Positions 13,465-55,018 of a stretch of 64,000 nt of DNA are shown here, in pieces (the first letter of the stretch is position 1; each line of letters opens with the position of its first letter). The DNA comes from a virus. Taxonomy: Duplodnaviria; Caudoviricetes. The stretch lies in the IMG/VR virus record IMGVR_UViG_3300049043_000164, positions 1,070 to 65,069 of that record. One strand, given 5' to 3'. The notes under the pieces were generated by a model. It searched no databases. It was not told the origin of the DNA and was given only the letters and a program-made list of their open reading frames with translations. The translations under genes and the position numbers were made by a program.

Positions 13465-13922
13465 TTCTTTATCAATCCTTGACGAACTAGGGTTTCCCGC
13501 ATTTTAGGTAGCGGTTGGTAAATAACGACAAGTTTTCCGAGAATTCCTCGTTTTTTAATTAGTTTACCGCTATCGTCGCGAAGTTTATCAAATTCTCCAG
13601 CTCTAATTAAATATTCAGCTACACATCTTAATCTACGTTTCAAAGGTAAATCTGCATTTGGGAATTTACCACAAATGGTATCTGGTCCCATATCTTGGAA
13701 TGCAACACGCAATCTATTTGCTAACGTCATAGCAAAAGTAGGATCTTCTTCTTCATAATTTTTTAAGTTTTCCAGGTATCTACGCAAGATAAAAGTATCA
13801 AAAGACCCAGAAGGCGGCAAAAAAATTTCTATTTGTACCGAAAGAGAAGCAGGAAGTAAATCCGCAAAGTTTTCTATTGTCACATCTTCTATTGACCAGC
13901 CGTCAAATCGGTGTGTCATCAC
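13461..13922 (-). CDS. hypothetical protein
   Basis: 153 aa ORF with 4-nt overlaps on both sides. Confidence 0.6.
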   Translation of the reverse strand: MMTHRFDGWSIEDVTIENFADLLPASLSVQIEIFLPPSGSFDTFILRRYLENLKNYEEEDPTFAMTLANRLRVAFQDMGPDTICGKFPNADLPLKRRLRCVAEYLIRAGEFDKLRDDSGKLIKKRGILGKLVVIYQPLPKMRETLVRQGLIKK

Positions 13923-14858: not shown

Positions 14859-16668
14859 GTGGCAAATAGAAGGATTACGGAACTGCCCTCAATTCAGGGC
14901 GCATCGTTGGCAGAGGACGACTTGCTGACGATTGTTCACGTATTCGAAGTTGACCCAACCCTTAAAAATAAAAAAATTACTTTAACTGAATTTACAAACT
15001 ATCTAAATACAAAATATTTAACTTTTACAGGCGGCGTCTTAACGGGACCGTTTGTTGATCAATAGTAACCTTGAGGTTACTGGTACAACTACTCTTGGTG
15101 CCACCAATGTCAATGGTGCTGCTAATTTCAATGTTGTTTTTGTACAAAACAATTTAACTGTCACTGGGACAATCAGCGGTACCACACTGACTGGAACTAA
15201 TGTAAACGCTACAAATGGAACGTTTCAAACACTAACCACCAGTGGACATAATATTCAAAATAATTTAACTGTCAGTGGAACTTTATTTGCACGCGGTAAT
15301 TCTTTCTTTACGTCTGGCGTAACGGTAAGTGGCACCTTAACAGGAACAACCATTACTGGTACCACGGGCCAATTCAGTACTATTACCGGAAATACAGCAG
15401 GATTTACAACTGTAACTGGTACAACCATCACTGGAACAACAGCCAACTTCCAATCTGGTGTTTTTACTAGTCAGGTTTCTGGGACCCTTGTAACTGGAAG
15501 TCTTGGTGGTTTTGAAAATGTTGTTGCTGTTAGTGGTACATTTACCGATCGGATTTCCGGCGCAACAATTACTGGCAACACAGTAAGTGCAACAACAGGA
15601 ACTTTTGGAACCCTGGTCACCAGTGGACACACCGTTCAAAATAACTTAACTGTTTCAGGTAATCTCTCTGTACTTGGATCTGGATTCTTTTCGTCAGGCG
15701 TTAATATCAGTGGAACTTTAAGTGGAGTAACGGTTACAGGAACTACTTCTAATTTCACTTCAGGTGTTTTTACTCTGTTAAGCGGCACGGTTATTACAGG
15801 CGATACAGCAGGATTTACAACTATTACCGGTACTACGGTTACTGGTACAACCGCCAACTTTGTGTCAGGAGTCTTTACTGGTCAAGTTTCAGGCGCCACA
15901 ATTACTGGAAATACTGGACGATTCACGCAACTATCTGGAATCTCCGGAGTGTTCACCTCTCAAGTTTCTGGCGCAACCATCACTGGAAACTTAATTCAAG
16001 GCACAAATATTACAGGTACTGCCGGTGGTTTTACGACTCTAACCGGTACAACAATTACAGGTGTTACTGCTAATTTTCAATCTGGTGTTTTTACTACTCA
16101 GATTTCTGGTGCAACCATTACCGGAAATACAGGTCAATTTACGACGTTAACTGGTCAATCTGCTGGATTTAATAGTATTACCGGAGTTACAATTACCGGC
16201 GGAACAATTACTTTTCAAACGATTAGTGGTGCAAGTGGCATATTCACTTCACAGATAAGCGGCAATACAATCACTGGTAATACTATTAACAGCACCACAT
16301 CTACTAGTGTTTCTGGTGTTTTTACAACCCAAGTTTCTGGTCAAACGATTACCGGAAACATCATTAGAGCTACTTCAGGTGTTTTTCAATTTTTACAAGC
16401 TGCAAACCAAAGCTTTTCTGGAGATTTCACTTTCTCTGGTAATACTTTTACTCTTGGATCTGGATTTTTTGGTTCTGGTATAAGTGTTACAGGAACAGTT
16501 TCCGGTCAAACAATTACAGGAACCGCAGGTTTATTCACAAACATAACAGGACAAACTCTTCACATTACGCAACCTTCTGGTTCAACAGTAGCAATTACAT
16601 GTTCAGGTGTTGTTTCTGGTAGCACGAGTGGATTTATTATTAAAGGACCACTGATTATTCTGCCTTAA
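14859..16668 (+). CDS. tail fibre-like protein with Thr/Gly/Ser repeats (frameshift near 15055)
   Basis: MANRRITELP...DDLL.IV tail-attachment-like N-terminus followed by many SGATITGNT / SGVFT repeats. Confidence 0.75.
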
Positions 16669-17040
16669 TACCTAAAGTAAAATAATAAAAGAAAAAAAGG
16701 ACTGTCATGCCGTACGGAATTATTAAAGTTGAGACCATAACGTTTACAGACGGTGGTGTTGATAAAAGCGTTCAAATTTCCGGATTAGTTCAAAATCCAA
16801 CTTTTAGCGGCAATGTAACCTGCACCGGAACCATTTCAGGTGTAACAATTACGGGATCTGTTGCTCAATTCACAACAATTACTGGAAGCGCCGCAGGGTT
16901 TACTACTGTAACAGGAACTACGGTCACTGGCACCACTGCAAACTTTGTCTCAGGTGTATTTACTACTCAGATTTCTGGCGCAACCATTACCGGAAATACA
17001 GGTCAATTTACAAACTTAACTGGTCAATCTGCGGGATTTA
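16084..17040 (+). repeat. near-identical ~87-nt direct repeat shared by the two fibre genes (16084-16170 and 16953-17039)
   Basis: ggtgtttttactactcagatttctggtgcaaccattaccggaaatacaggtcaattt versus ggtgtatttactactcagatttctggcgcaaccattaccggaaatacaggtcaattt. Confidence 0.85.
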
Positions 17041-17735
17041 CAACTGTTACTGGTACTACCATTACAGGCGCAACTATTAACGCTGTTTCAGGTGTATTTA
17101 CTTCACGGATTTCCGGTGCAACAATTACTGGTAACACAGCAGGATTTACAACTGTTACTGGTACTACTATTACCGGCTCAACCGTTAACGCTGTTTCAGG
17201 TGTATTTACAACAAGTGTTTCTGGTGCCACACTGATTGGTAATTTAGTTACATGTAATAGTGGAAATTTTGCTTCTGGATTAATTACTACTGGCGTAATT
17301 CAATCTACAACGGGTGGCTTTAGGTTTCCAGATGGAACAACACAAACCAGTGCAGCAACAACAACGGCAAACGTTGCAACAACAACAGGAATCAATACGT
17401 TTAGTGCTGCTCAACGAGGAACAATTATTATTCAATCTTATGCAACTGGCATTGCATTAGATTTTAGCTCTGGAAATTACTTTCAAATCACATTAACTGG
17501 AACAACTGTTTTACAAAACCCAACAAACGTTGCTTCTGGTCAAGCAGGAGTTGTTACAATTATTCAAGGAAGTTCAGGAAACACAATGTCTTTTGGAAGT
17601 AATTGGCATTACCCAGGAGGTTCGGGCAATACACCTTCTTTAACCACAACAAGTGGAGCTGTCGACTTGCTTGTATATTACACAAGAAGTACTACAAGTA
17701 TTGGTTATAGGCTAATTCAAGACATTAAGGCTTGA
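16707..17735 (+). CDS. tail fibre-like protein, paralogue of the upstream gene
   Basis: Same SGVFT/SGATITG repeats; GGFRFPDGTTQT; C-terminal LDFSSGNYF.ITL...NPTN...GQAG...FGSNW..PGG...PSLT...AVDLL domain typical of phage fibres. Confidence 0.8.
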   Translation: MPYGIIKVETITFTDGGVDKSVQISGLVQNPTFSGNVTCTGTISGVTITGSVAQFTTITGSAAGFTTVTGTTVTGTTANFVSGVFTTQISGATITGNTGQFTNLTGQSAGFTTVTGTTITGATINAVSGVFTSRISGATITGNTAGFTTVTGTTITGSTVNAVSGVFTTSVSGATLIGNLVTCNSGNFASGLITTGVIQSTTGGFRFPDGTTQTSAATTTANVATTTGINTFSAAQRGTIIIQSYATGIALDFSSGNYFQITLTGTTVLQNPTNVASGQAGVVTIIQGSSGNTMSFGSNWHYPGGSGNTPSLTTTSGAVDLLVYYTRSTTSIGYRLIQDIKA

Positions 17736-17881
17736 TTTGATATGTCGATCTTAAATACTGCAGTAAATTTATTAATGGGTCCTCCCCTGGGACCACCGGA
17801 TACTCTATTCCTAGATCTTTACGATTCAATAGTAGTGACAGTGGTTACGAGCCTCAAGAAACTGTCAATCGCATCCGCAAG

Positions 17882-18394
17882 ATGCCTCCACTCAGCTTCT
17901 TTCAAGAGCGACTGGAATACAACGCGGAGACTGGTGAGTTCACTTGGTTGGGGGATTTCAATGCCAAGCGCGTTGGTCGGAGGGCTGGTACGACTGTTGG
18001 GGTCAAGGGCTACAGAACAATTACAATCAAAAAGCGCCGCTTTTACGAGCACCGGATTGCGTGGTACATGATGACCGGCGAAGATCCTACGAGTTTTGAA
18101 ATTGATCACATTAACGGTGACAAAACTGACAACCGTTTTTGTAACCTGCGGCTTGCCACCAGTCAAACAAACAAGGCTAACTGCAAGTTGACTGCAAGCA
18201 ACAGTTCTGGCTTCAAGGGAGTTCATGCCCGTGGATCTCGCTGGATCGCTGGCATTACTCATAACCGCAAAATGATTCACATCGGCATGTTCAAAACTGC
18301 AGAAGAGGCTGCTCGTGCTTACGACGCCAAAGCCGTCGAACTTTTTGGTGAATACGCTTTGACAAACGCTCAACTGCAGGAGGTGGCAGCATGA
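17882..18394 (+). CDS. HNH-AP2 homing endonuclease
   Basis: HRIAW...IDHINGDKTDNRFCNLR...N..N...SSGFKGV...W.A.I...IGMF.TAEEAARAYD..A..LFGEYA. Confidence 0.9.
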   Translation: MPPLSFFQERLEYNAETGEFTWLGDFNAKRVGRRAGTTVGVKGYRTITIKKRRFYEHRIAWYMMTGEDPTSFEIDHINGDKTDNRFCNLRLATSQTNKANCKLTASNSSGFKGVHARGSRWIAGITHNRKMIHIGMFKTAEEAARAYDAKAVELFGEYALTNAQLQEVAA

Positions 18395-20844
18395 CTATTC
18401 CAGGAAGCGCAAATCCCCTGCTCTTGACAGCCGCCGCAACTGCGGGAGGCTATTCAATTTCTCGATCCTTGCGGTTCAATTCCGCAGACTCGGCGTATTT
18501 GTCCCGCACCCCGGCATCGGCGGGCAACAGGAAGACCTGGACCTATTCACTCTGGTTTAAGCTGGGGAGTATCACTGGATATCAATACTTTATTTCTGCT
18601 AACAATCCGTCTGGCTGGGGGTACGAGTTTCGACATTCTCCAGATGGACAATAACGCCTCCACAATAGTCTTTATTGGCTATAACGGATCTTCTGGTGAT
18701 TGGCTTCTAAGTTACTACGGCGGTTTTCAGAGATCCATTCTGCATGGCAGCACTTTGTTATCGCATTCGACACAACTCAAGCAACTGCGTCAGATCGTGT
18801 CTAAATGGTGGCATAACGGAAACCTGCTAAATCTTGATCGTCAGTGGCTACACAACCTATCCAGCACTCAATGCTGACTCAATGGATTAACAACACAGTA
18901 AGTCAAAGGATGTTCAGATCAGAGCCTATGGGCTTATTCTGGCTACCTCGCCGACATCTACTTCATCGACGGCCAAGCGCTAACCCCCACCAGCTTCGGT
19001 GAGATTTGACGCCAACGGCATCTGGCAGCCCAAGGCATACACCGGGCACCTACGGCACCAACGGCTTCCACCTGCCGATTTCGCGGATAACAGCAGCAGC
19101 AACCGCCACCACATTAGGGAAGGACACTTCTGGCAACGGCAATAACTGGACGCCAAACAATCTCAGCGTCACCGCAGGTGCAGGCAACGACTCCCTCGTA
19201 GACTCCCCCACTAATGGCACCGCATCCAGCGGCGGCGATGCTGGTGGAACCGTGGTGGGGAATTATGCGACGTTGAATCCGTTAGATAAAATCCTCCTCA
19301 GTTACACTCGCAAACGGAAATCTTGACGCATCATCAACAGCACTAGGTGAGCATCGAGCCCGTGGAACGATTGCCTATCCGGTGTCTGGCAAAGTGGTCG
19401 AGGAAGATTAACCTGCAGGCTCAACATTTGCTGGCTATGTCGGTATCGCCGTAGCGCCAGGGAGCGCCTCTGACAACTGGAGCCGGGCGCACAAACATAT
19501 GGGTACAACGAGGGCGGCAACTTTTATGTAAACGGAAGCCCGCAAGGAACGCTGTTTGCGTCATTTACCACAAACGACGTTATCGGCGTAGCCGTAGATA
19601 TAGACGCTTTAACTATTGCTTTTTACAAGAACGGAACGCAAACCGGGAATTCGCAAAGCATCAGCGGTTCATATACATACTTCCCGCTGGCAAACGCGCA
19701 GAACGGAACTTTTATTTTCAACTTTGGCCAGCGTGCGTTCGCCAGGTCAGGTGGTGCCCCCGCAGGGTTCGAGTCTCGACACCGCCAACCTGCACCACGC
19801 ACAACGATCCTGGCGGGCAGTACGGCGTTTGACACCAAGCTCTACACCGGCAACGGCAGCGCCCAGACGATGAGTGGGCTTGCCTTCTCGCCTGACTTTT
19901 CGTGGTTTAAGGCCAGAAGCGCTGCATACGATCATCAGCTTTCGACCGTTATGCGTGGCGTCATGCAACGTACTTTTCATAGCAACCTGACCAGCGCAGA
20001 GAGCACTCTTAATACGGCTTACTGCTACAACGTCTGACGGGTTTACCGCCAGCGGCGCACCGTATGCAGGAACAAACGGAAGATGGCACCGCGTTCTGCT
20101 CGCCTGGTGCTGGGACGCGGGGAGTTCAACCGTCACCAGCACCGGCAGCATCGCATTCTACGGCGATGGGCGAACGCTAGTGCGGGGTTATCGATTGTTA
20201 GCCGGACCTCCACCAGTTCTCGTGCAACCATTGGCCATGGTCTTGGGGCTGACACCGTGTGTGATTATGTACCGGAGGAAGAAGCGGATCAGCACCAACG
20301 GGCCACATATCGCGATTACCGCCGGTTGGAGGCCACAAATGACTTGTATTTGAACTCCACTGATGCCGCTACTACCTACAGCGGTTCCCGGAATGATACG
20401 GCCACCGCCAAGCAGCTGGTGTCAGCAGCGGGATCGAGACGCTATCTTTACAACAAATGGACGAGCTAGGATTTCGCCGTACTGCTCGCCAGCGGTACTT
20501 GCCACACACCGCCGCCCAATGGGGTGCCGACCAGGAGCTGAGGCATGGTCAGTGGTTCAATAGTGACTAGGCTCTGGCAATAGAAATGGCTCGATCGCAG
20601 CTTCGTGGAGACTCGTATAACATCCGCAAGACCGCCGATGTCATTGCGCCGCGCCTAAGCGCCGCACGAGCATTGAACGGCGAGCTTATGCGCTGGACTG
20701 CTACTGGAACACTTCATTCTGATGGCCTGTCATAATGAGCGAACAAGCCAGCGCTACCGAGACACTGCGCATGAGAACTAACATCTATGCCGCCTTGGCG
20801 CACTGAAAGAGCGCGCCTTCTCCCATCGGCCGCCACCCCACTAG
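18391..20844 (+). CDS. tail fibre/receptor-binding protein with LamG- and SPRY-like segments, heavily frameshifted
   Basis: MTIPGSANPLLL...YSISRSLRFNSADSAYLSRTPASAGNRKTWT; TYGTNGFHL; GKDTSGNGNNWTPNN...DSLVDSPTN...NYATLNPL. The 3' half is too degraded to reconstruct. Confidence 0.65.
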
Positions 20845-20856
20845 CGAAACACACTA

Positions 20857-21048
20857 ATGACTACAACTACCAGCGACCTTCTTGAAAAACTATCTGACGC
20901 ATGGTGTAATGCTTTGCAGTCGGATCTAGAGCACGGTGTTAGTTGCTTAAATGCAAGGGCCGCCACTGAGTTCCATCAGGAACTACAAAGCAATCTCAGC
21001 GTTGAAGAGATGCTTAATGACCTTTACATCGAGTATTGCGATGACTGA
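20857..21048 (+). CDS. hypothetical protein (cassette gene)
   Basis: ATG overlaps the right arm of the dyad site at 20841-20857; W..ALQSDLEHGV..LN motif. Confidence 0.5.
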   Translation: MTTTTSDLLEKLSDAWCNALQSDLEHGVSCLNARAATEFHQELQSNLSVEEMLNDLYIEYCDD

Positions 21049-21293
21049 ACTTTCACCAGCAGCGCAGGCCATTTGGGAAGCGTTCAACGAAGACGAAGCT
21101 GGCGTCTTTGTTGGATTACGGCGACAAGCTGGCCGCCGCCCTTGAGGCGCTGGCTGATCAGGTGGTGCCGCAACCGCCGATGATCGTCGAAGGCGGGCGG
21201 AATTACGAACAAGCGTGGACGGCAACGGTTCAAGAATCCATCCGTTCCAAAATCCTTACCATCGCCGCCGAGTTGCGTGGCACACCCTCGTAG
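21041..21293 (+). CDS. small phage protein, MTELSPAAQA...IAAEL type (frameshifted)
   Basis: MTELSPAAQAIWEAF joins LAAALEALADQVVP...ILTIAAELRG; stop TAG lies inside the site at 21290. Confidence 0.55.
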
Positions 21294-21312
21294 ACGCTTC
21301 CACTAATTGCCC

Positions 21313-21548
21313 ATGACGCAGCAACTTATCACCTGCAGCCAAAGGCGTTCTTGAAAGAGCGATGGAGTTTTCCGGACCAGAGGCTTGAACCCGTAGAAGA
21401 CCCGTCAAATGCATGTGGCGAAGCAATTCGTTATGCTGTAGCTCACACTCAGCAGTATCAAGGAACAGACTGCTTTGCTACATGAGGCATGGACCTGCGA
21501 TGCGGACGAACGTCCTGGCCATTGCAGATGAGCTTGAAGCGCCAGTAG
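21313..21548 (+). CDS. paralogous small phage protein (degraded)
   Basis: Starts MTQQL and ends ...VLAIADELEA; TAG in the site at 21545 is the inferred stop, assuming an indel. Confidence 0.35.
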
Positions 21549-21562
21549 TCACCCTCACTTAT

Positions 21563-21745
21563 ATGCACGAAGAAATTACACCAGAAGAAAATGAACGCCG
21601 CTTCCAAGCCTGCCTTGAACAGATCCGCAAACTTACCAGGGAGGATCTTGTTAAGCTAATGGGTAAGGAGTGGGTTGAAGATTATCGCCGCCGGTTCCAG
21701 TACGTCATTGCCACTACAAAATGGGCATTTCGTATTCTTGGGTAA
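21563..21745 (+). CDS. hypothetical protein (cassette gene)
   Basis: MHEEITPEENERRFQ...; ATG 1 nt after the site at 21545; the true stop is probably at the 21700 site. Confidence 0.45.
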   Translation: MHEEITPEENERRFQACLEQIRKLTREDLVKLMGKEWVEDYRRRFQYVIATTKWAFRILG

Positions 21746-22569
21746 CATTGCAATAGTGTTTCCAAATAACTTCTGAGCTGTTACCAGCCCATGCAGCAAC
21801 TTGTGCCACAGGAATTTGTGATTCAATCCAACGAGAAATAGCTGTGTGCCTTAAATCATAAGGACGATAACGATGAGTGATAAGATCTTCTGTTTTTAAT
21901 TCTTTCATGCGGTCATAGAAATAGCTTTGAAAAGCATATCTATTGTAAGGAAAAATATAAGAATCTTCTTGTGGTGTTTTATTTAAAATTTCTTGGCAAC
22001 GCTGGTTAAGAGGTACCCACCTTTTGCGATTTGTTTTTGTTGAATCTTTGTGTCCATGAGTAAGCGTGTAATTTGAATGAACAAGAATCTTATTGTCTTT
22101 AATATCTTCCCAACGTAAAGCTCTTACTTCACCAGTTCGCATAGCAGTTTGTAACATAAATTCCGAATAAAAAGCCCAGTTGTATTTAGGTTTTCTTGAT
22201 TTTCCTTCTAAAGCTGAGATTACAACTGAAACCTCGTTACAGAGGAATTACAATAATTTCTTCATCTTCTTGGGCGCCTTAGGCATTTTAAAAGACAAAA
22301 TGAGATTTTTTGCTACTAATGCAATGTCTTCATTGGTTGCCCATCGATAAAGACTTTTGACATACATGGCTACGCGCCTGCTTGTCATAATTGGTTTCTG
22401 CTGAAGTACCCATGTCATTAACTGTCTTCCTTGAGTAAGGTCAGTTACTGGACATTTTTTTAACCATTTATCAACTACTACATAATCAGAAGTCAAACTT
22501 GTAGGACAAAGGACGATTGAACGTTCTGTTTCTAAAATGAGCCCAGGCTTCTTGGATTGAGGTTGACAT
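21714..22569 (-). CDS. tyrosine recombinase/integrase (frameshifted)
   Basis: TAMRTGEVRALRWEDI, STKTNRKRWVPL, YDLRHTAISR, VAAWAGNS...KHY: catalytic R, K, HxxR and Y present; N-terminal part lies in the 22248..22622 frame. Confidence 0.85.
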
Positions 22570-22663
22570 ACCTTGAAGATGTTAGATTGTAAAATTTTAA
22601 TGTTTAACAGAGACGAGGTCAATGGGAAACTAGGTTAAAATAATTATACAGAATAAAAAAACA

Positions 22664-23263
22664 ATGTTTGTTTTAGATGGTAGGCCATTAGCCCCCGATT
22701 CACCTTTTAGTCATAATGGAATTAATTATCCTGCGAATTGGCTAAGGCTTAGTACGTGGGAAGAAAAACAAGCAATTGGAATTCAAGAGATTCCAGATCC
22801 TCCTACTTGGGATCAACGATTCTACTGGGGATATGATTCAGAGGGGCATTTAATTCCAAAAGACCATACACAACTGATTTCCACCTGGGATCAAAACACA
22901 AATCAAACTGCTTATACTCTTTTGCTGCCAACCGATTGGATGATTGTTAGGCAAGTTGATGAAGGAATTGAAATAGACACAAAAACAAAAACCTGGCGCC
23001 AAACAATTCGACTTGCATGTGCTACCAAAATTACTGCTATTAAAGCAACAACAACCACCGATGAGCTAGCAGCTTTTGTCACTGGGCCTGAATATCCAGT
23101 GTGGCCACAACTTTCAGATGCAACTCAACCATATCCAAGTTGGACTCAGGTTGCAATGACTGGTAAATGGGAAGCACCTATTAGCAAGCCAATTGAACCA
23201 GGTGAATACAAATGGAATGAAGAAACTCAACAATGGGAACTCATTGAAACAGTTGAAAACTAA
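22664..23263 (+). CDS. tail fibre assembly/chaperone-like protein
   Basis: YPANWLRLS..EEK.AIGI.E...DQRFYW; LLPTDWMIVR; QPYPSW...WEAP..KP...Y.WNEETQQW. Confidence 0.65.
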   Translation: MFVLDGRPLAPDSPFSHNGINYPANWLRLSTWEEKQAIGIQEIPDPPTWDQRFYWGYDSEGHLIPKDHTQLISTWDQNTNQTAYTLLLPTDWMIVRQVDEGIEIDTKTKTWRQTIRLACATKITAIKATTTTDELAAFVTGPEYPVWPQLSDATQPYPSWTQVAMTGKWEAPISKPIEPGEYKWNEETQQWELIETVEN

Positions 23264-53662: not shown

Positions 53663-54503
53663 TTTGTTTCAGTAAGTTCGTCAACAAGAATTGGTAAATA
53701 ATTTTCAAGCCATACTTCAACAGACTGTTGATCTTCAGCAGCAATCTTAGTTAATTTCCAAAATGTATCTTTATCAATTTCAAGATAAAGACGCATATCT
53801 CTATTAGTTAGAGTCATAAATTCAAGAGTAGATTTAAGTGTTGGATGTTGATTAAACATAGTTAATCATCAAGTTGTTCCACAAGCACGGCGAAGAATGT
53901 TTTCATGAGCAGCATCTAGGTTTGCATCATCCAAAATAATCAGCGCCTGCTCCTTCAAGCTCGGCGGTTTTCGGACGGCGAAACGTTGCGAAGACCTTGA
54001 CGATCTTGTTCATACATCAGATACTCACAACATGCATCCAGCTCCTGGTTAGCAGCCCAAGTGGTAGCTACTTCAACAAGCCAGCAAAGGCCAGTTTCAT
54101 CGTAACCAGTGGTATTGCGAACTGTACTAATCCACTGTTCTATTAACTCAGGCGGTGGAGTAATTGCGTTGTGGTCAGTCATTGTTTGGTTGTGTAATTT
54201 CGTTGAGTTGTAAAGCGTCAAGTAAATATACAGTTTGTTCTTCACCTAAAATCTTAAAAGAATCAACAATCAAATCTTGATTGTGTTCATTAAGCTAGTA
54301 ATAATCATCAAGAATTTCAATAGCACGGGCATCACCAGTTGGATTACCGTTAGCTTTTCAAGAATGTGAGTTGGCATTGCATCTACAATTGCATCGATTA
54401 ATTGTTCTTTAACAAGACTCCAGCTTTGAATAGGAATGTGTTTACATACTTGATCAACTAAATCCAAATTGATTGGTGGGCTTGGTTTGTTTGAAATCAT
54501 ATG

Positions 54504-54932: not shown

Positions 54933-55018
54933 TGGTAGAGATGGTGGGACTCGAACCCACACGACCAAAGGTCAACGCATTTTAAGTGCGTAGCGGCTAC
55001 CGATTACGCCACATCTCC
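54933..55018 (-). tRNA. tRNA-Leu(TAA)
   Basis: Acceptor GGAGATG/CATCTCT, anticodon arm ACGCA-CTTAAAA-TGCGT, long variable arm GACC-TTT-GGTC, T-arm GTGGG-TTCGAGT-CCCAC, encoded ACCA end. Confidence 0.92.

Follow-up and report, generated by a model that had tools for sequence, protein, structure and literature searches.

We analysed a window of 64,000 nucleotides (nt) from IMG/VR record IMGVR_UViG_3300049043_000164, one linear viral contig of 65,069 bases that is estimated to be 81% complete. An initial annotation had described, at 17832-22569, an integron- or shufflon-like cassette array within the tail-fibre locus, delimited by five short dyad sites (consensus GTAGT-N7-ACTAC) and served by its own tyrosine recombinase. 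The features themselves are real, and the integron or shufflon reading is unsupported. We consider it likely that the region consists of three ordinary things, none of which needs the integrase. A gene for a fibre-like virion protein, together with its tail of small genes, would form a standard variable locus that lies in the present group of lake cyanophages between the tail-fibre genes and a convergent integrase gene and that phages with different backbones presumably exchange. A free-standing HNH-AP2 nuclease cassette appears to have entered the fibre-like gene behind codon 36 and in frame; the cassette's recoded codons 1-36 would rebuild the gene downstream, leaving the old start fused to the nuclease, and this insertion would account for the left border and for site 1. 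Sites 3-5 would be copies of an unstructured, pyrimidine-rich spacer between a TAG stop and the next ATG. A self-encoded integron-like system in a host-recognition locus would have been a new route to host-range change. The evidence points instead to a normal exchange hot spot, shaped by a homing nuclease and by the gain and loss of small genes.

The GC-rich block is a variable fibre and accessory-gene locus

Relatives of the window contig include the Synechococcus phages S-EIV1 and S-LBS1. Its backbone is S-EIV1-like, with a 507-amino-acid (aa) protein that is 49.4% identical to its S-EIV1 counterpart, and we read the phage as a lake cyanophage. The closest relative is a viral contig of 83.5 kb, represented here by the three loci L002, L086 and L152. 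L002 matches the window at 84-89% nucleotide identity up to position 16876, and the match resumes from 21697. In L002 the genes of the locus are all intact and follow the order fibre 1, fibre 2, DUF7936 gene, fibre-like gene (1057 aa), small genes (111, 141, 94 and 50 aa), convergent integrase (284 aa) and 199-aa gene. In the window, nucleotide homology to relatives extends past fibre gene 2 to 17757-17763. Fibre gene 2 is the last conserved backbone gene ahead of the variable locus, and the 199-aa gene is the first one past it.

The contrast in guanine-plus-cytosine content (GC) that had drawn attention to the block was confirmed, with values of 0.48-0.59 over about 17.85-21.7 kb against 0.35-0.40 on both sides. 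The interpretation of the block as a foreign insert of this particular phage did not hold. In L002, the same locus has a GC of 0.50-0.58, compared to about 0.40 in its flanks. Since the closest relative shares the GC-rich locus, the contrast is a property of the locus rather than the trace of a recent insert in one phage. The block is therefore the usual variable locus of the group, made up of fibre and accessory genes. A repeat scan of 17000-22800 found no convincing direct repeats flanking the block as a whole.

A receptor-binding fibre had been predicted within the block, and a fibre-like gene does start at 18391. Pfam searches with the orthologue from L002 identified Laminin_G_3, SPRY and DUF7483 domains. 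Compared by tblastn with intact homologues, the window gene showed 37-43% identity, largely within a single frame and with brief departures into others. The homologue match stops at residue 918 of 1057, and approximately the last 140 codons are absent from the window copy. Its most conserved part, a patch at 18940-19281, is 95.7% identical to L007. Relatives of the fibre-like protein, at 37-47% identity, were found in phages of Methylophilales, Pelagibacter, Roseobacter, Synechococcus and Prochlorococcus. We measured the GC of the gene in three genomes (backbone values in brackets): 0.48 (about 0.55) in G001, 0.52 (0.43-0.47) in L003 and 0.53 in L002. G001 is a second viral record (locus L214) with a backbone GC of 0.54-0.58 that is otherwise unlike the window's. 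Together, these comparisons suggest that the fibre-like gene is a host-recognition module that moves between phage backbones.

The small genes behind the fibre-like gene comprise a family A (famA; MTQDYxHPITPPPELV, phrog_32006), a family B (famB; MTxLSPAA...ELEAQ) and others unrelated to both. Homologues of famA also occur in the phages S-CBS2, S-H1 and S-RIP1. Paralogous small genes had been noted after the fibre, and MTxLSPAA-type paralogues are indeed present. The second famB gene of the window ends ..IADELEA(Q) followed by TAG once one extra base is discounted; it was undetected by tblastn with the queries used, and the call was made by inspection. Homologues of the last small gene, s60, end ..DYRRQF(S/Q) and then TAG. 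In the window, the s60 reading frame runs on to 21745 because an extra C near 21703 abolishes the expected stop.

Comparison of gene content among relatives, which had been proposed as a check, revealed that the stretch from fibre to integrase varies from no small genes (L009, L011-L014 and L022) to at least eight (L204), with short conserved elements at the joints between them. Relative to L022, the array of L002 is a 1.27-kb insertion between the fibre-like flank and the integrase stop codon. Compared to L002 and L007, the window has an insertion at 21307-21710, bordered by sites 3 and 5. A further gene, s50, is accompanied by both of its spacers as the last gene in L152 and as an inner gene in L204. 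Indels between relatives end at the junction elements, and likewise in variable arrays with no integrase nearby. Such variation around conserved joints speaks for cassette exchange of some kind, although viable breakpoints would survive at gene joints in any case; a link to the recombinase is unsupported.

A nuclease cassette at the left border

The initial annotation had described an AT-rich open reading frame (ORF) from 17742 that is broken at site 1. Three-frame translation and alignment of relatives bore this out and identified the ORF as the start of the native fibre-like gene. It begins MSILNTAV..., contains one frameshift and then reads ...GYSIPRSLRFNSSDSGY, which is the conserved fibre-like start of the relatives. 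Site 1 (17832-17848) is the DNA encoding SSDSGY in this remnant, that is, coding sequence rather than a recombinase site. The Y of SSDSGY is followed by a short linker, by the HNH ORF and then by an ATGA overlap that opens a complete new fibre-like start. This rebuilt start (MTIPGSANPLL...RFNSADSAY) continues into the conserved ...LSRTPASAGNRKTW. The HNH-AP2 nuclease gene reported for the block was recovered as the ORF at 17882-18394, with Pfam matches to HNH_3 (7e-15) and AP2 (1.6e-4, below the Pfam cut-off) and a match to the HNH endonuclease family phrog_99 (2.5e-62).

For comparison with independent sequence, we used run X1, a small contig set labelled lake water metagenome and the one public run with part of the window, which contained 35% of the sampled words. 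Its contigs were compared with 14-26 kb of the window; coverage of 20.0-20.8 and 21.6-22.8 kb was very thin. The X1 contigs support the backbone except for one more C in the C-run after 17783, where a short-read contig contradicts the window. By frame arithmetic, the extra C brings the start codon at 17742 into the reading frame of the HNH ORF.

The cassette measures about 650 bp and sits at the conserved coding motif NSSDSGY. Positions 17823-18544 of the window (722 nt) are 98.2% identical to G001, with zero indels over 17823-18531 (709 nt), and the flanks diverge on both sides. Remnant, HNH gene and full gene follow one another in identical order in G001 and the window. Both L002 and L003 lack the cassette at the same codon and have an intact target, with an identical 32-nt stretch spanning the insertion point. 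In the cassette alleles, the left half of this stretch lies in the remnant and the right half in the rebuilt gene, where the left half is respelled by other codons. The cassette is thus present or absent at one exact site and has a near-identical copy in a divergent genome. The split and recoded 32-nt stretch is what a homing endonuclease that abolishes its own recognition sequence would be expected to leave behind, and we infer such an activity. The left border is accordingly best read as a probable homing-endonuclease insertion inside coding sequence, not as a recombinase site. Close copies of the window HNH gene were found only in the window itself and in G001; the next best HNH match had at most 53% identity. 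We rejected arrival of the whole block together with the HNH gene, because the sequence in common with G001 reaches only 33 nt beyond the cassette and because L002 is GC-rich without an HNH gene.

As with free-standing HNH homing endonucleases, a conserved structural gene either carries or lacks the nuclease gene at a single defined position, a near-identical copy is found in a divergent phage, and the conserved target is disrupted in the carriers. In the part of the literature available to us, mobE is described as an HNH homing endonuclease gene that splits nrdA in Aeromonas phage Aeh1 (PMC3045599), and phage nuclease genes are placed at boundaries of genetic exchange (PMC10448857). The present case differs in that the target gene is not left as two working pieces: the cassette supplies recoded first 36 codons, the gene restarts at the ATGA overlap and the nuclease ORF continues the frame of the old start. 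It would represent a tidy entry of a selfish nuclease gene into a virion gene, bringing along a recoded spare start. Distant HNH(-AP2) genes, at 24-38% identity to the window's, occur at other gene borders in the fibre region of relatives (L023:9435-9905; L087:9512-9931; L114 and L130:10529-11038; left end of L171); the one in L023 occupies the slot held elsewhere by the integrase gene.

A short spacer between stop and start codons

The element at sites 3-5 links a stop codon to the start codon that follows, has the form TAG-TC-pyrimidine-rich-ACT-ATG and is 17-20 nt long. Many small genes of the relatives end in TAG, TC, a pyrimidine-rich run and ACT, with an ATG soon after; others use an ATGACTRA overlap. 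One exact 17-nt form was found in at least 120 viral contigs, compared with a rough estimate of a few tens of chance matches that was based on a guessed collection size. Genes of the fibre/small-gene locus were also present in 101 of the 120 element loci listed.

Among the element matches listed, we analysed 94 distinct contexts. In 84 of them the TAG terminated an open frame upstream, and an ATG followed 14 nt after the TAG in 48 and 19 nt after it in 17. Upstream genes belonged to famA (43), famB (12) or neither (39), and the downstream starts were of famB type (30), famA-like (13) or of at least 25 other kinds. In loci retrieved with protein queries, not with the motif, 10 of 12 distinct famB ends had the stop TAG followed by TC, and 9 of 15 famA ends used the ATGACTRA overlap. 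The element was better conserved than the adjoining codons. A spacer of 17-20 nt is kept nearly letter for letter in more than 100 lake-phage contigs, between many unrelated small genes.

Five junctions folded no better than shuffled sequences (z -0.33 to +1.72), consistent with the earlier remark that no long attC-style hairpins are present. A promoter and terminator scan of the L002 array gave nothing at the joints and one promoter-like site upstream of the integrase gene, and an Rfam search of three array loci gave no match. In 65 of the 94 listed contexts, the next ATG lies at one of two fixed distances, 14 or 19 nt, which points to a role in expression. The spacer may thus serve the expression of the downstream gene, most likely as a translation start without a Shine-Dalgarno sequence, and its conservation would at the same time provide short homology for the gain, loss and duplication of small genes. 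Two further ideas were set aside: a presumed anti-Shine-Dalgarno likeness of the spacer, to the 3' tail of 16S rRNA, and a presumed likeness to phage-polymerase promoters of the T7 type.

In several contigs (L152, L168, L170 and L204), non-coding sequence of about 200 nt separates the fibre-like gene from the first gene of famA (e.g., L002:7770-7975). It carries TTGACA-like words and, in several contigs, the conserved run ..GGTAATGTGGTG.AGCAGCGGTGCG..AAC... Rfam returned nothing for it. This stretch may be a promoter or an RNA leader of the array.

The PeSL cassettes of T4-type phages resemble these arrays in that small accessory genes, mostly without an assigned function, are parted by a repeated conserved motif, and in that content differs between close relatives at the motifs. 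Each PeSL repeat has a strong sigma-70-type promoter and a terminator stem-loop. The spacer described here is only about 17-20 nt long, with neither promoter-like hexamers nor a stem-loop. PeSL and the hyperplastic regions of T4-type phages are also treated in the accessible part of PMC4122927.

The five sites differ in kind

All five strings of the initial annotation are present at the positions given, as loose matches that do not form one class. Sites 1, 3 and 4 have two mismatches each to GTAGT-N7-ACTAC, site 2 has three, and the spacer of site 5 is 8 nt long. A genome-wide frequency check, which had been suggested, revealed no enrichment of the consensus or of two patterns derived from it: allowing up to two mismatches, the window contains 22 matches to the consensus compared to 19.2 +/- 4.5 in shuffled sequences, and 23 of 100 shuffles reach 22. 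The pattern TAG-N9-CTA occurs 9 times in the window against 9.96 expected; 4 of the 9 lie within the block, a clustering that was noticed post hoc. With CT(A/T) at its end, the same spacing is found twice in the fibre-like gene (19199 and 19601), and the first of these boxes lies in its best-conserved patch. Strict spacer patterns from relatives match the window 0-1 times, because the window copies are divergent subtypes.

The three internal sites had been placed at gene junctions. Sites 3 and 4 are stop-to-start spacers, and the string at site 2 is the coding end of the upstream gene. In G001, the gene upstream of site 2 is intact (171 aa) and reads through as ...PTSETH, with a TAA that overlaps the next ATG. 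By this homologue, the stop at site 2 (20841-20857) is the TAA at 20855-20857, in a TAATG stop/start overlap. The TAG is hence the upstream stop at site 3 (21291) and, if one base is discounted, at site 4, but not at site 2. Site 5 (21700-21717) holds the stop codon of the recombinase as described, the ORF ending at 21714-21716, and it fits the element once its extra C is discounted; the ORF itself, which had been credited with intact catalytic residues, is not intact in this assembly. The TAG-TC element is represented by a different subtype at each of sites 3, 4 and 5. The element of site 3 is also found at the integrase stop of L007 and nearly identically at that of L002, and site 4 is the TAGTCACCTTC subtype, which also occurs in L104, L106, L107, L154 and L204.

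No sign of a tie between the element and the integrase

The integrase encoded at the right end is 89.7% identical to the 284-aa orthologue of L002 and 68.3% identical to the integrase of S-LBS1. Compared to the 284-aa orthologue, the window gene has an in-frame stop and at least three indels. The orthologue matched no NCBIfam equivalog (XerD 31 bits, cut-off 329.6; XerA/integron-type NF040815 29.6 bits, cut-off 220), and no PDB relative was found at E <= 0.001. A search of 185,579 species genomes returned only matches of 24-26% identity and no integrated copy; at that distance no attL or attR could be read. The integrase family itself was confirmed, and no attP was identified.

The integrase gene is present in 12 of the 120 listed element loci. 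Of the listed loci, 29 extend for 3 kb or more in both directions, and 28 of these lack an integrase gene within 3 kb. Arrays with the same spacers also occur in L104-L107, with no integrase gene in the contig; as these contigs are 23-51% complete, its absence from the four proves little. Viewed from the integrase, 54 loci represent 36 distinct junctions past the stop codon. In 17 junctions, a TAG lies at a distance of exactly 9 nt from the integrase stop; the other 19 have no TAG at this position. In 13 of the 17, a fibre-like gene or small-gene array was detected alongside. Of the remaining four, L180 has no detected neighbour; the L187 group has p199 nearest, as a tblastn match beyond the integrase stop; the L194 group adjoins the DUF7936 gene; and L204, with a nearest match of famA type, was therefore counted with the arrays. 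The TAG-N9 spacing is found at every junction at which a fibre-like gene or array was detected beside the integrase, and the element is missing from the stop codon of orthologues that are 62-77% identical and lie in other contexts.

Relatives without an integrase gene have the same fibre-like 3' flank, consisting of (C/G)TAG, 9 nt and CTAG, followed by the 199-aa gene. The integrase module of about 0.94 kb lies immediately after the CTA of this flank, and the CTA is its stop codon. All 277 small-gene matches in the 120 listed loci are co-oriented with the element, and therefore nothing suggests inversion. Overall, the element shows no tie to the integrase.

In L087, L193-L201 and S-LBS1 (L225:6001-7214), the same type of integrase gene is followed directly by the DUF7936 gene and does not face a fibre-like gene. 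Given these varied neighbours, the integrase module occurs in at least three contexts within the fibre region. The integration module of S-LBS1 is similar to that of the window in that the integrase adjoins a tail-fibre gene whose GC is unlike the rest of the genome and in that a TAGTC-type element follows the fibre stop codon. It differs in the direction of the integrase gene, which is that of the fibre gene, and in the DUF7936 gene that comes next. By tblastn, the S-LBS1 fibre is of the fibre-2 type and not of the LamG type. The available part of the S-LBS1 report gives no evidence of integration and describes the fibre gene as having the lowest GC of the genome (PMC6157547).

Integrons and shufflons are the classical models for the proposed array; the features described here come nearest to free-standing homing endonucleases and to PeSL-type shuffling. 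Integrons consist of an integrase gene of the IntI type, with its additional domain, an attI site and attC cassettes; attC sites are imperfect inverted repeats of tens of bases that form a hairpin at the end of each cassette. In shufflons, the recombinase Rci acts on sfx sites. Both systems share with the window a tyrosine recombinase gene beside a variable array of short genes parted by short repeats. In contrast to integrons, no integron-integrase model was matched here, the repeat scan of 17000-22800 revealed no attC-like structures at the joints, and the repeats occur without an integrase nearby. The array also abuts the 3' end of the integrase gene in convergent orientation, whereas attI and the array of an integron lie on the 5' (promoter) side. 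Shufflons have recombination sites in inverted orientation and segments that occur both ways round; here, all repeats are direct and all five sites lie on one strand. Cassette capture or inversion by the phage's own recombinase is therefore unsupported: no inverted segment and no link to the integrase were found, and sites 1 and 2 are coding sequence.

Frameshifts and assembly quality

Between about 18.55 and 22.57 kb, indels affect the fibre-like gene, both famB genes, s60 and the integrase gene. The contig has the look of a long-read assembly in which indel errors remain, and the likeliest cause of the frameshifts would be a poorly polished consensus where co-occurring strains differ. Real decay or a consensus of mixed strains is possible as well. 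Indels also occur outside the GC-rich block, at the C-run after 17783, at 22240-22290 and at about 22530. Fibre gene 1 (14859-16668) is split into two ORFs near 15052-15065, and L002 has one gene of 603 aa in its place.

Alternative explanations

Several observations weigh against an account in which variable locus, nuclease cassette and spacer suffice. The TAG-N9-CT(A/T) spacing recurs in unrelated settings, namely in the fibre-like gene, at small-gene joints, in the fibre 3' flank and at the integrase stop, which descent together with a role in expression does not obviously explain. In addition, the box at 19190-19218 and site 3 with its flanks agree at 24 of 29 bases. The insertion at 21307-21710 has a copy of the element at either end, and one of these copies lies at the integrase stop; a site-specific insertion would look identical. 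An integrase acting from elsewhere in the array genomes is possible, given the incompleteness of those contigs. Furthermore, the frameshifts, which by our count amount to about 3-4 per kb in the block and integrase gene against about 0.7 per kb in the flanks, may be real decay, and X1 cannot decide between decay and error because 20.0-20.8 and 21.6-22.8 kb are barely covered. It is conceivable, though very unlikely, that freshwater cyanophages have a dedicated recombination system for which the TAG-N9-CT(A/T) boxes serve as recognition or crossover sites, and in which an S-LBS1-type integrase encoded anywhere in the genome, or another enzyme, moves small genes and fibre modules as cassettes; such a system would be a phage-borne counterpart of the integron with minimal sites. 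We regard as very improbable the more specific proposal that the integrase uses a core site overlapping its own stop to insert, stack and excise small-gene or fibre cassettes in integron-like fashion. It could explain why the content beside the integrase stop ranges from no small genes to at least eight, why 17 of 36 junctions have a TAG at exactly 9 nt from the stop though the 9 nt differ, why copies of the element flank the insertion at 21307-21710 and why the integrase module begins exactly at the CTA of a pre-existing flank element. However, 28 of 29 listed testable loci have no integrase within 3 kb, relatives free of integrase carry the element, and 19 of 36 integrase junctions lack it, including those of the 62-77% orthologues. 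The spacers also differ widely between sites, unlike a shared overlap region. Direct sites without inversions or hairpins, the coding nature of sites 1 and 2 and an NCBIfam score for XerD of about a tenth of its cut-off, with no integron-integrase model matched, argue further against it.

The remaining two alternatives leave the integrase aside. The spacer might be mainly a recombination substrate, a mobile linker through which homologous recombination shuffles small genes, perhaps via mini-circles as in PeSL, with expression secondary. The same 17-nt element joins many different gene pairs, is better conserved than the coding sequence beside it and accompanies s50 from a terminal to an inner position, and PeSL-mediated modular shuffling with mini-circles is described for the hyperplastic regions of T4-type phages in the accessible part of PMC2839356. 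Against this, 17-20 nt is short for homologous recombination, the promoter-like and stem-loop parts are missing, the fixed ATG distance points to expression, and selection for intact genes would leave viable breakpoints at gene joints whatever the mechanism; we therefore consider the linker unlikely to be the main role. Somewhat less unlikely, and still doubtful, is that the block is wholly or partly an assembly artefact of merged reads from co-occurring related phages. The dense frameshifts amid mostly intact flanking genes and the loss of the end of the fibre-like gene would fit, as would the absence of indels from the HNH segment, which is common to the strains. Moreover, the X1 backbone contig ends at 17843, and the X1 contig with the HNH gene starts at 17823, shows 9 differences and continues into sequence unlike the window. 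Yet gene order agrees with L002, L007 and G001 throughout, the block is bordered by two meaningful points, namely the HNH insertion site and the integrase stop, G001 has remnant, HNH gene and full gene in the same order, and contigs of one small run cannot show a misjoin. The reading as variable locus, homing cassette and spacer remains the one we favour.

Features of the locus and further observations

The features of the locus are compiled in Table 1.

Table 1 Features of the fibre locus and its borders, in window coordinates
Feature	Coordinates	Strand	Basis
Tail-fibre gene 2	16707..17735	+	Intact 342-aa ORF; 59-72% identity to relatives' fibres
Native fibre-like gene, 5' remnant (~36 codons, ends ...RFNSSDSGY)	17742..17848	+	Three-frame translation; aligned to starts of L002, L003 and G001
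HNH-AP2 cassette: linker, HNH ORF 17882-18394, recoded fibre-like codons 1-36 (ATG 18391)	17849..18498	+	
Fibre-like virion gene, LamG/SPRY/DUF7483 family	18391..20400	+	tblastn with intact homologues
TAG-N9-CTA box within coding sequence (..SLVDSPTN..)	19199..19213	+	Repeat scan, pattern matches
Garbled famA-type gene (QWGADQEL motif 20511-20540) and 3' end of another gene	20460..20857	+	
Small gene s63, intact, 63 aa	20857..21048	+	85.7% identity to G001 homologue
famB-type gene 1 (MTELSPAA...), one frameshift	21041..21293	+	L002 and G001 homologues match in two frames
Junction element, site 3: TAG, ACGCTTCC, ACTAA; ATG at 21314	21291..21306	+	
famB-type gene 2, paralogue with several frameshifts	21314..21548	+	Three-frame translation, inspection against typical famB ends
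Junction element, site 4: TAG, TCACCCTC, ACTTA; ATG at 21563	21546..21561	+	
Small gene s60	21563..21716	+	Homologues in L104, L105 and L107
Tyrosine integrase, S-LBS1 type, convergent with array	21714..22571	-	Pfam Phage_integrase, tblastn, translation
Conserved 199-aa gene	22664..23263	+	90% identity to L002; relatives in 140 stretches of viral contigs

Outside the fibre locus, a second famA-type gene (MTDHNAITPPPELIEQW..) was found on the minus strand at 53955-54182, in the early region near a tRNA-Leu gene (54933-55018). The 165 nt at 13630-13794 are 80.8% identical to Prochlorococcus phage P-HM1, the sole near-identity match to any phage isolate within 12-27 kb; the two records name the underlying gene differently, one as purM and the other as ferredoxin. 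Between its fibre-like gene and array, G001 encodes an ORF of 264 aa with a Cys-rich motif (L214:8060-8854) that had no NCBIfam match and no counterpart in the window. A small ORF within the G001 array (L214:10595-10813) consists almost entirely of GYGNGYG repeats.

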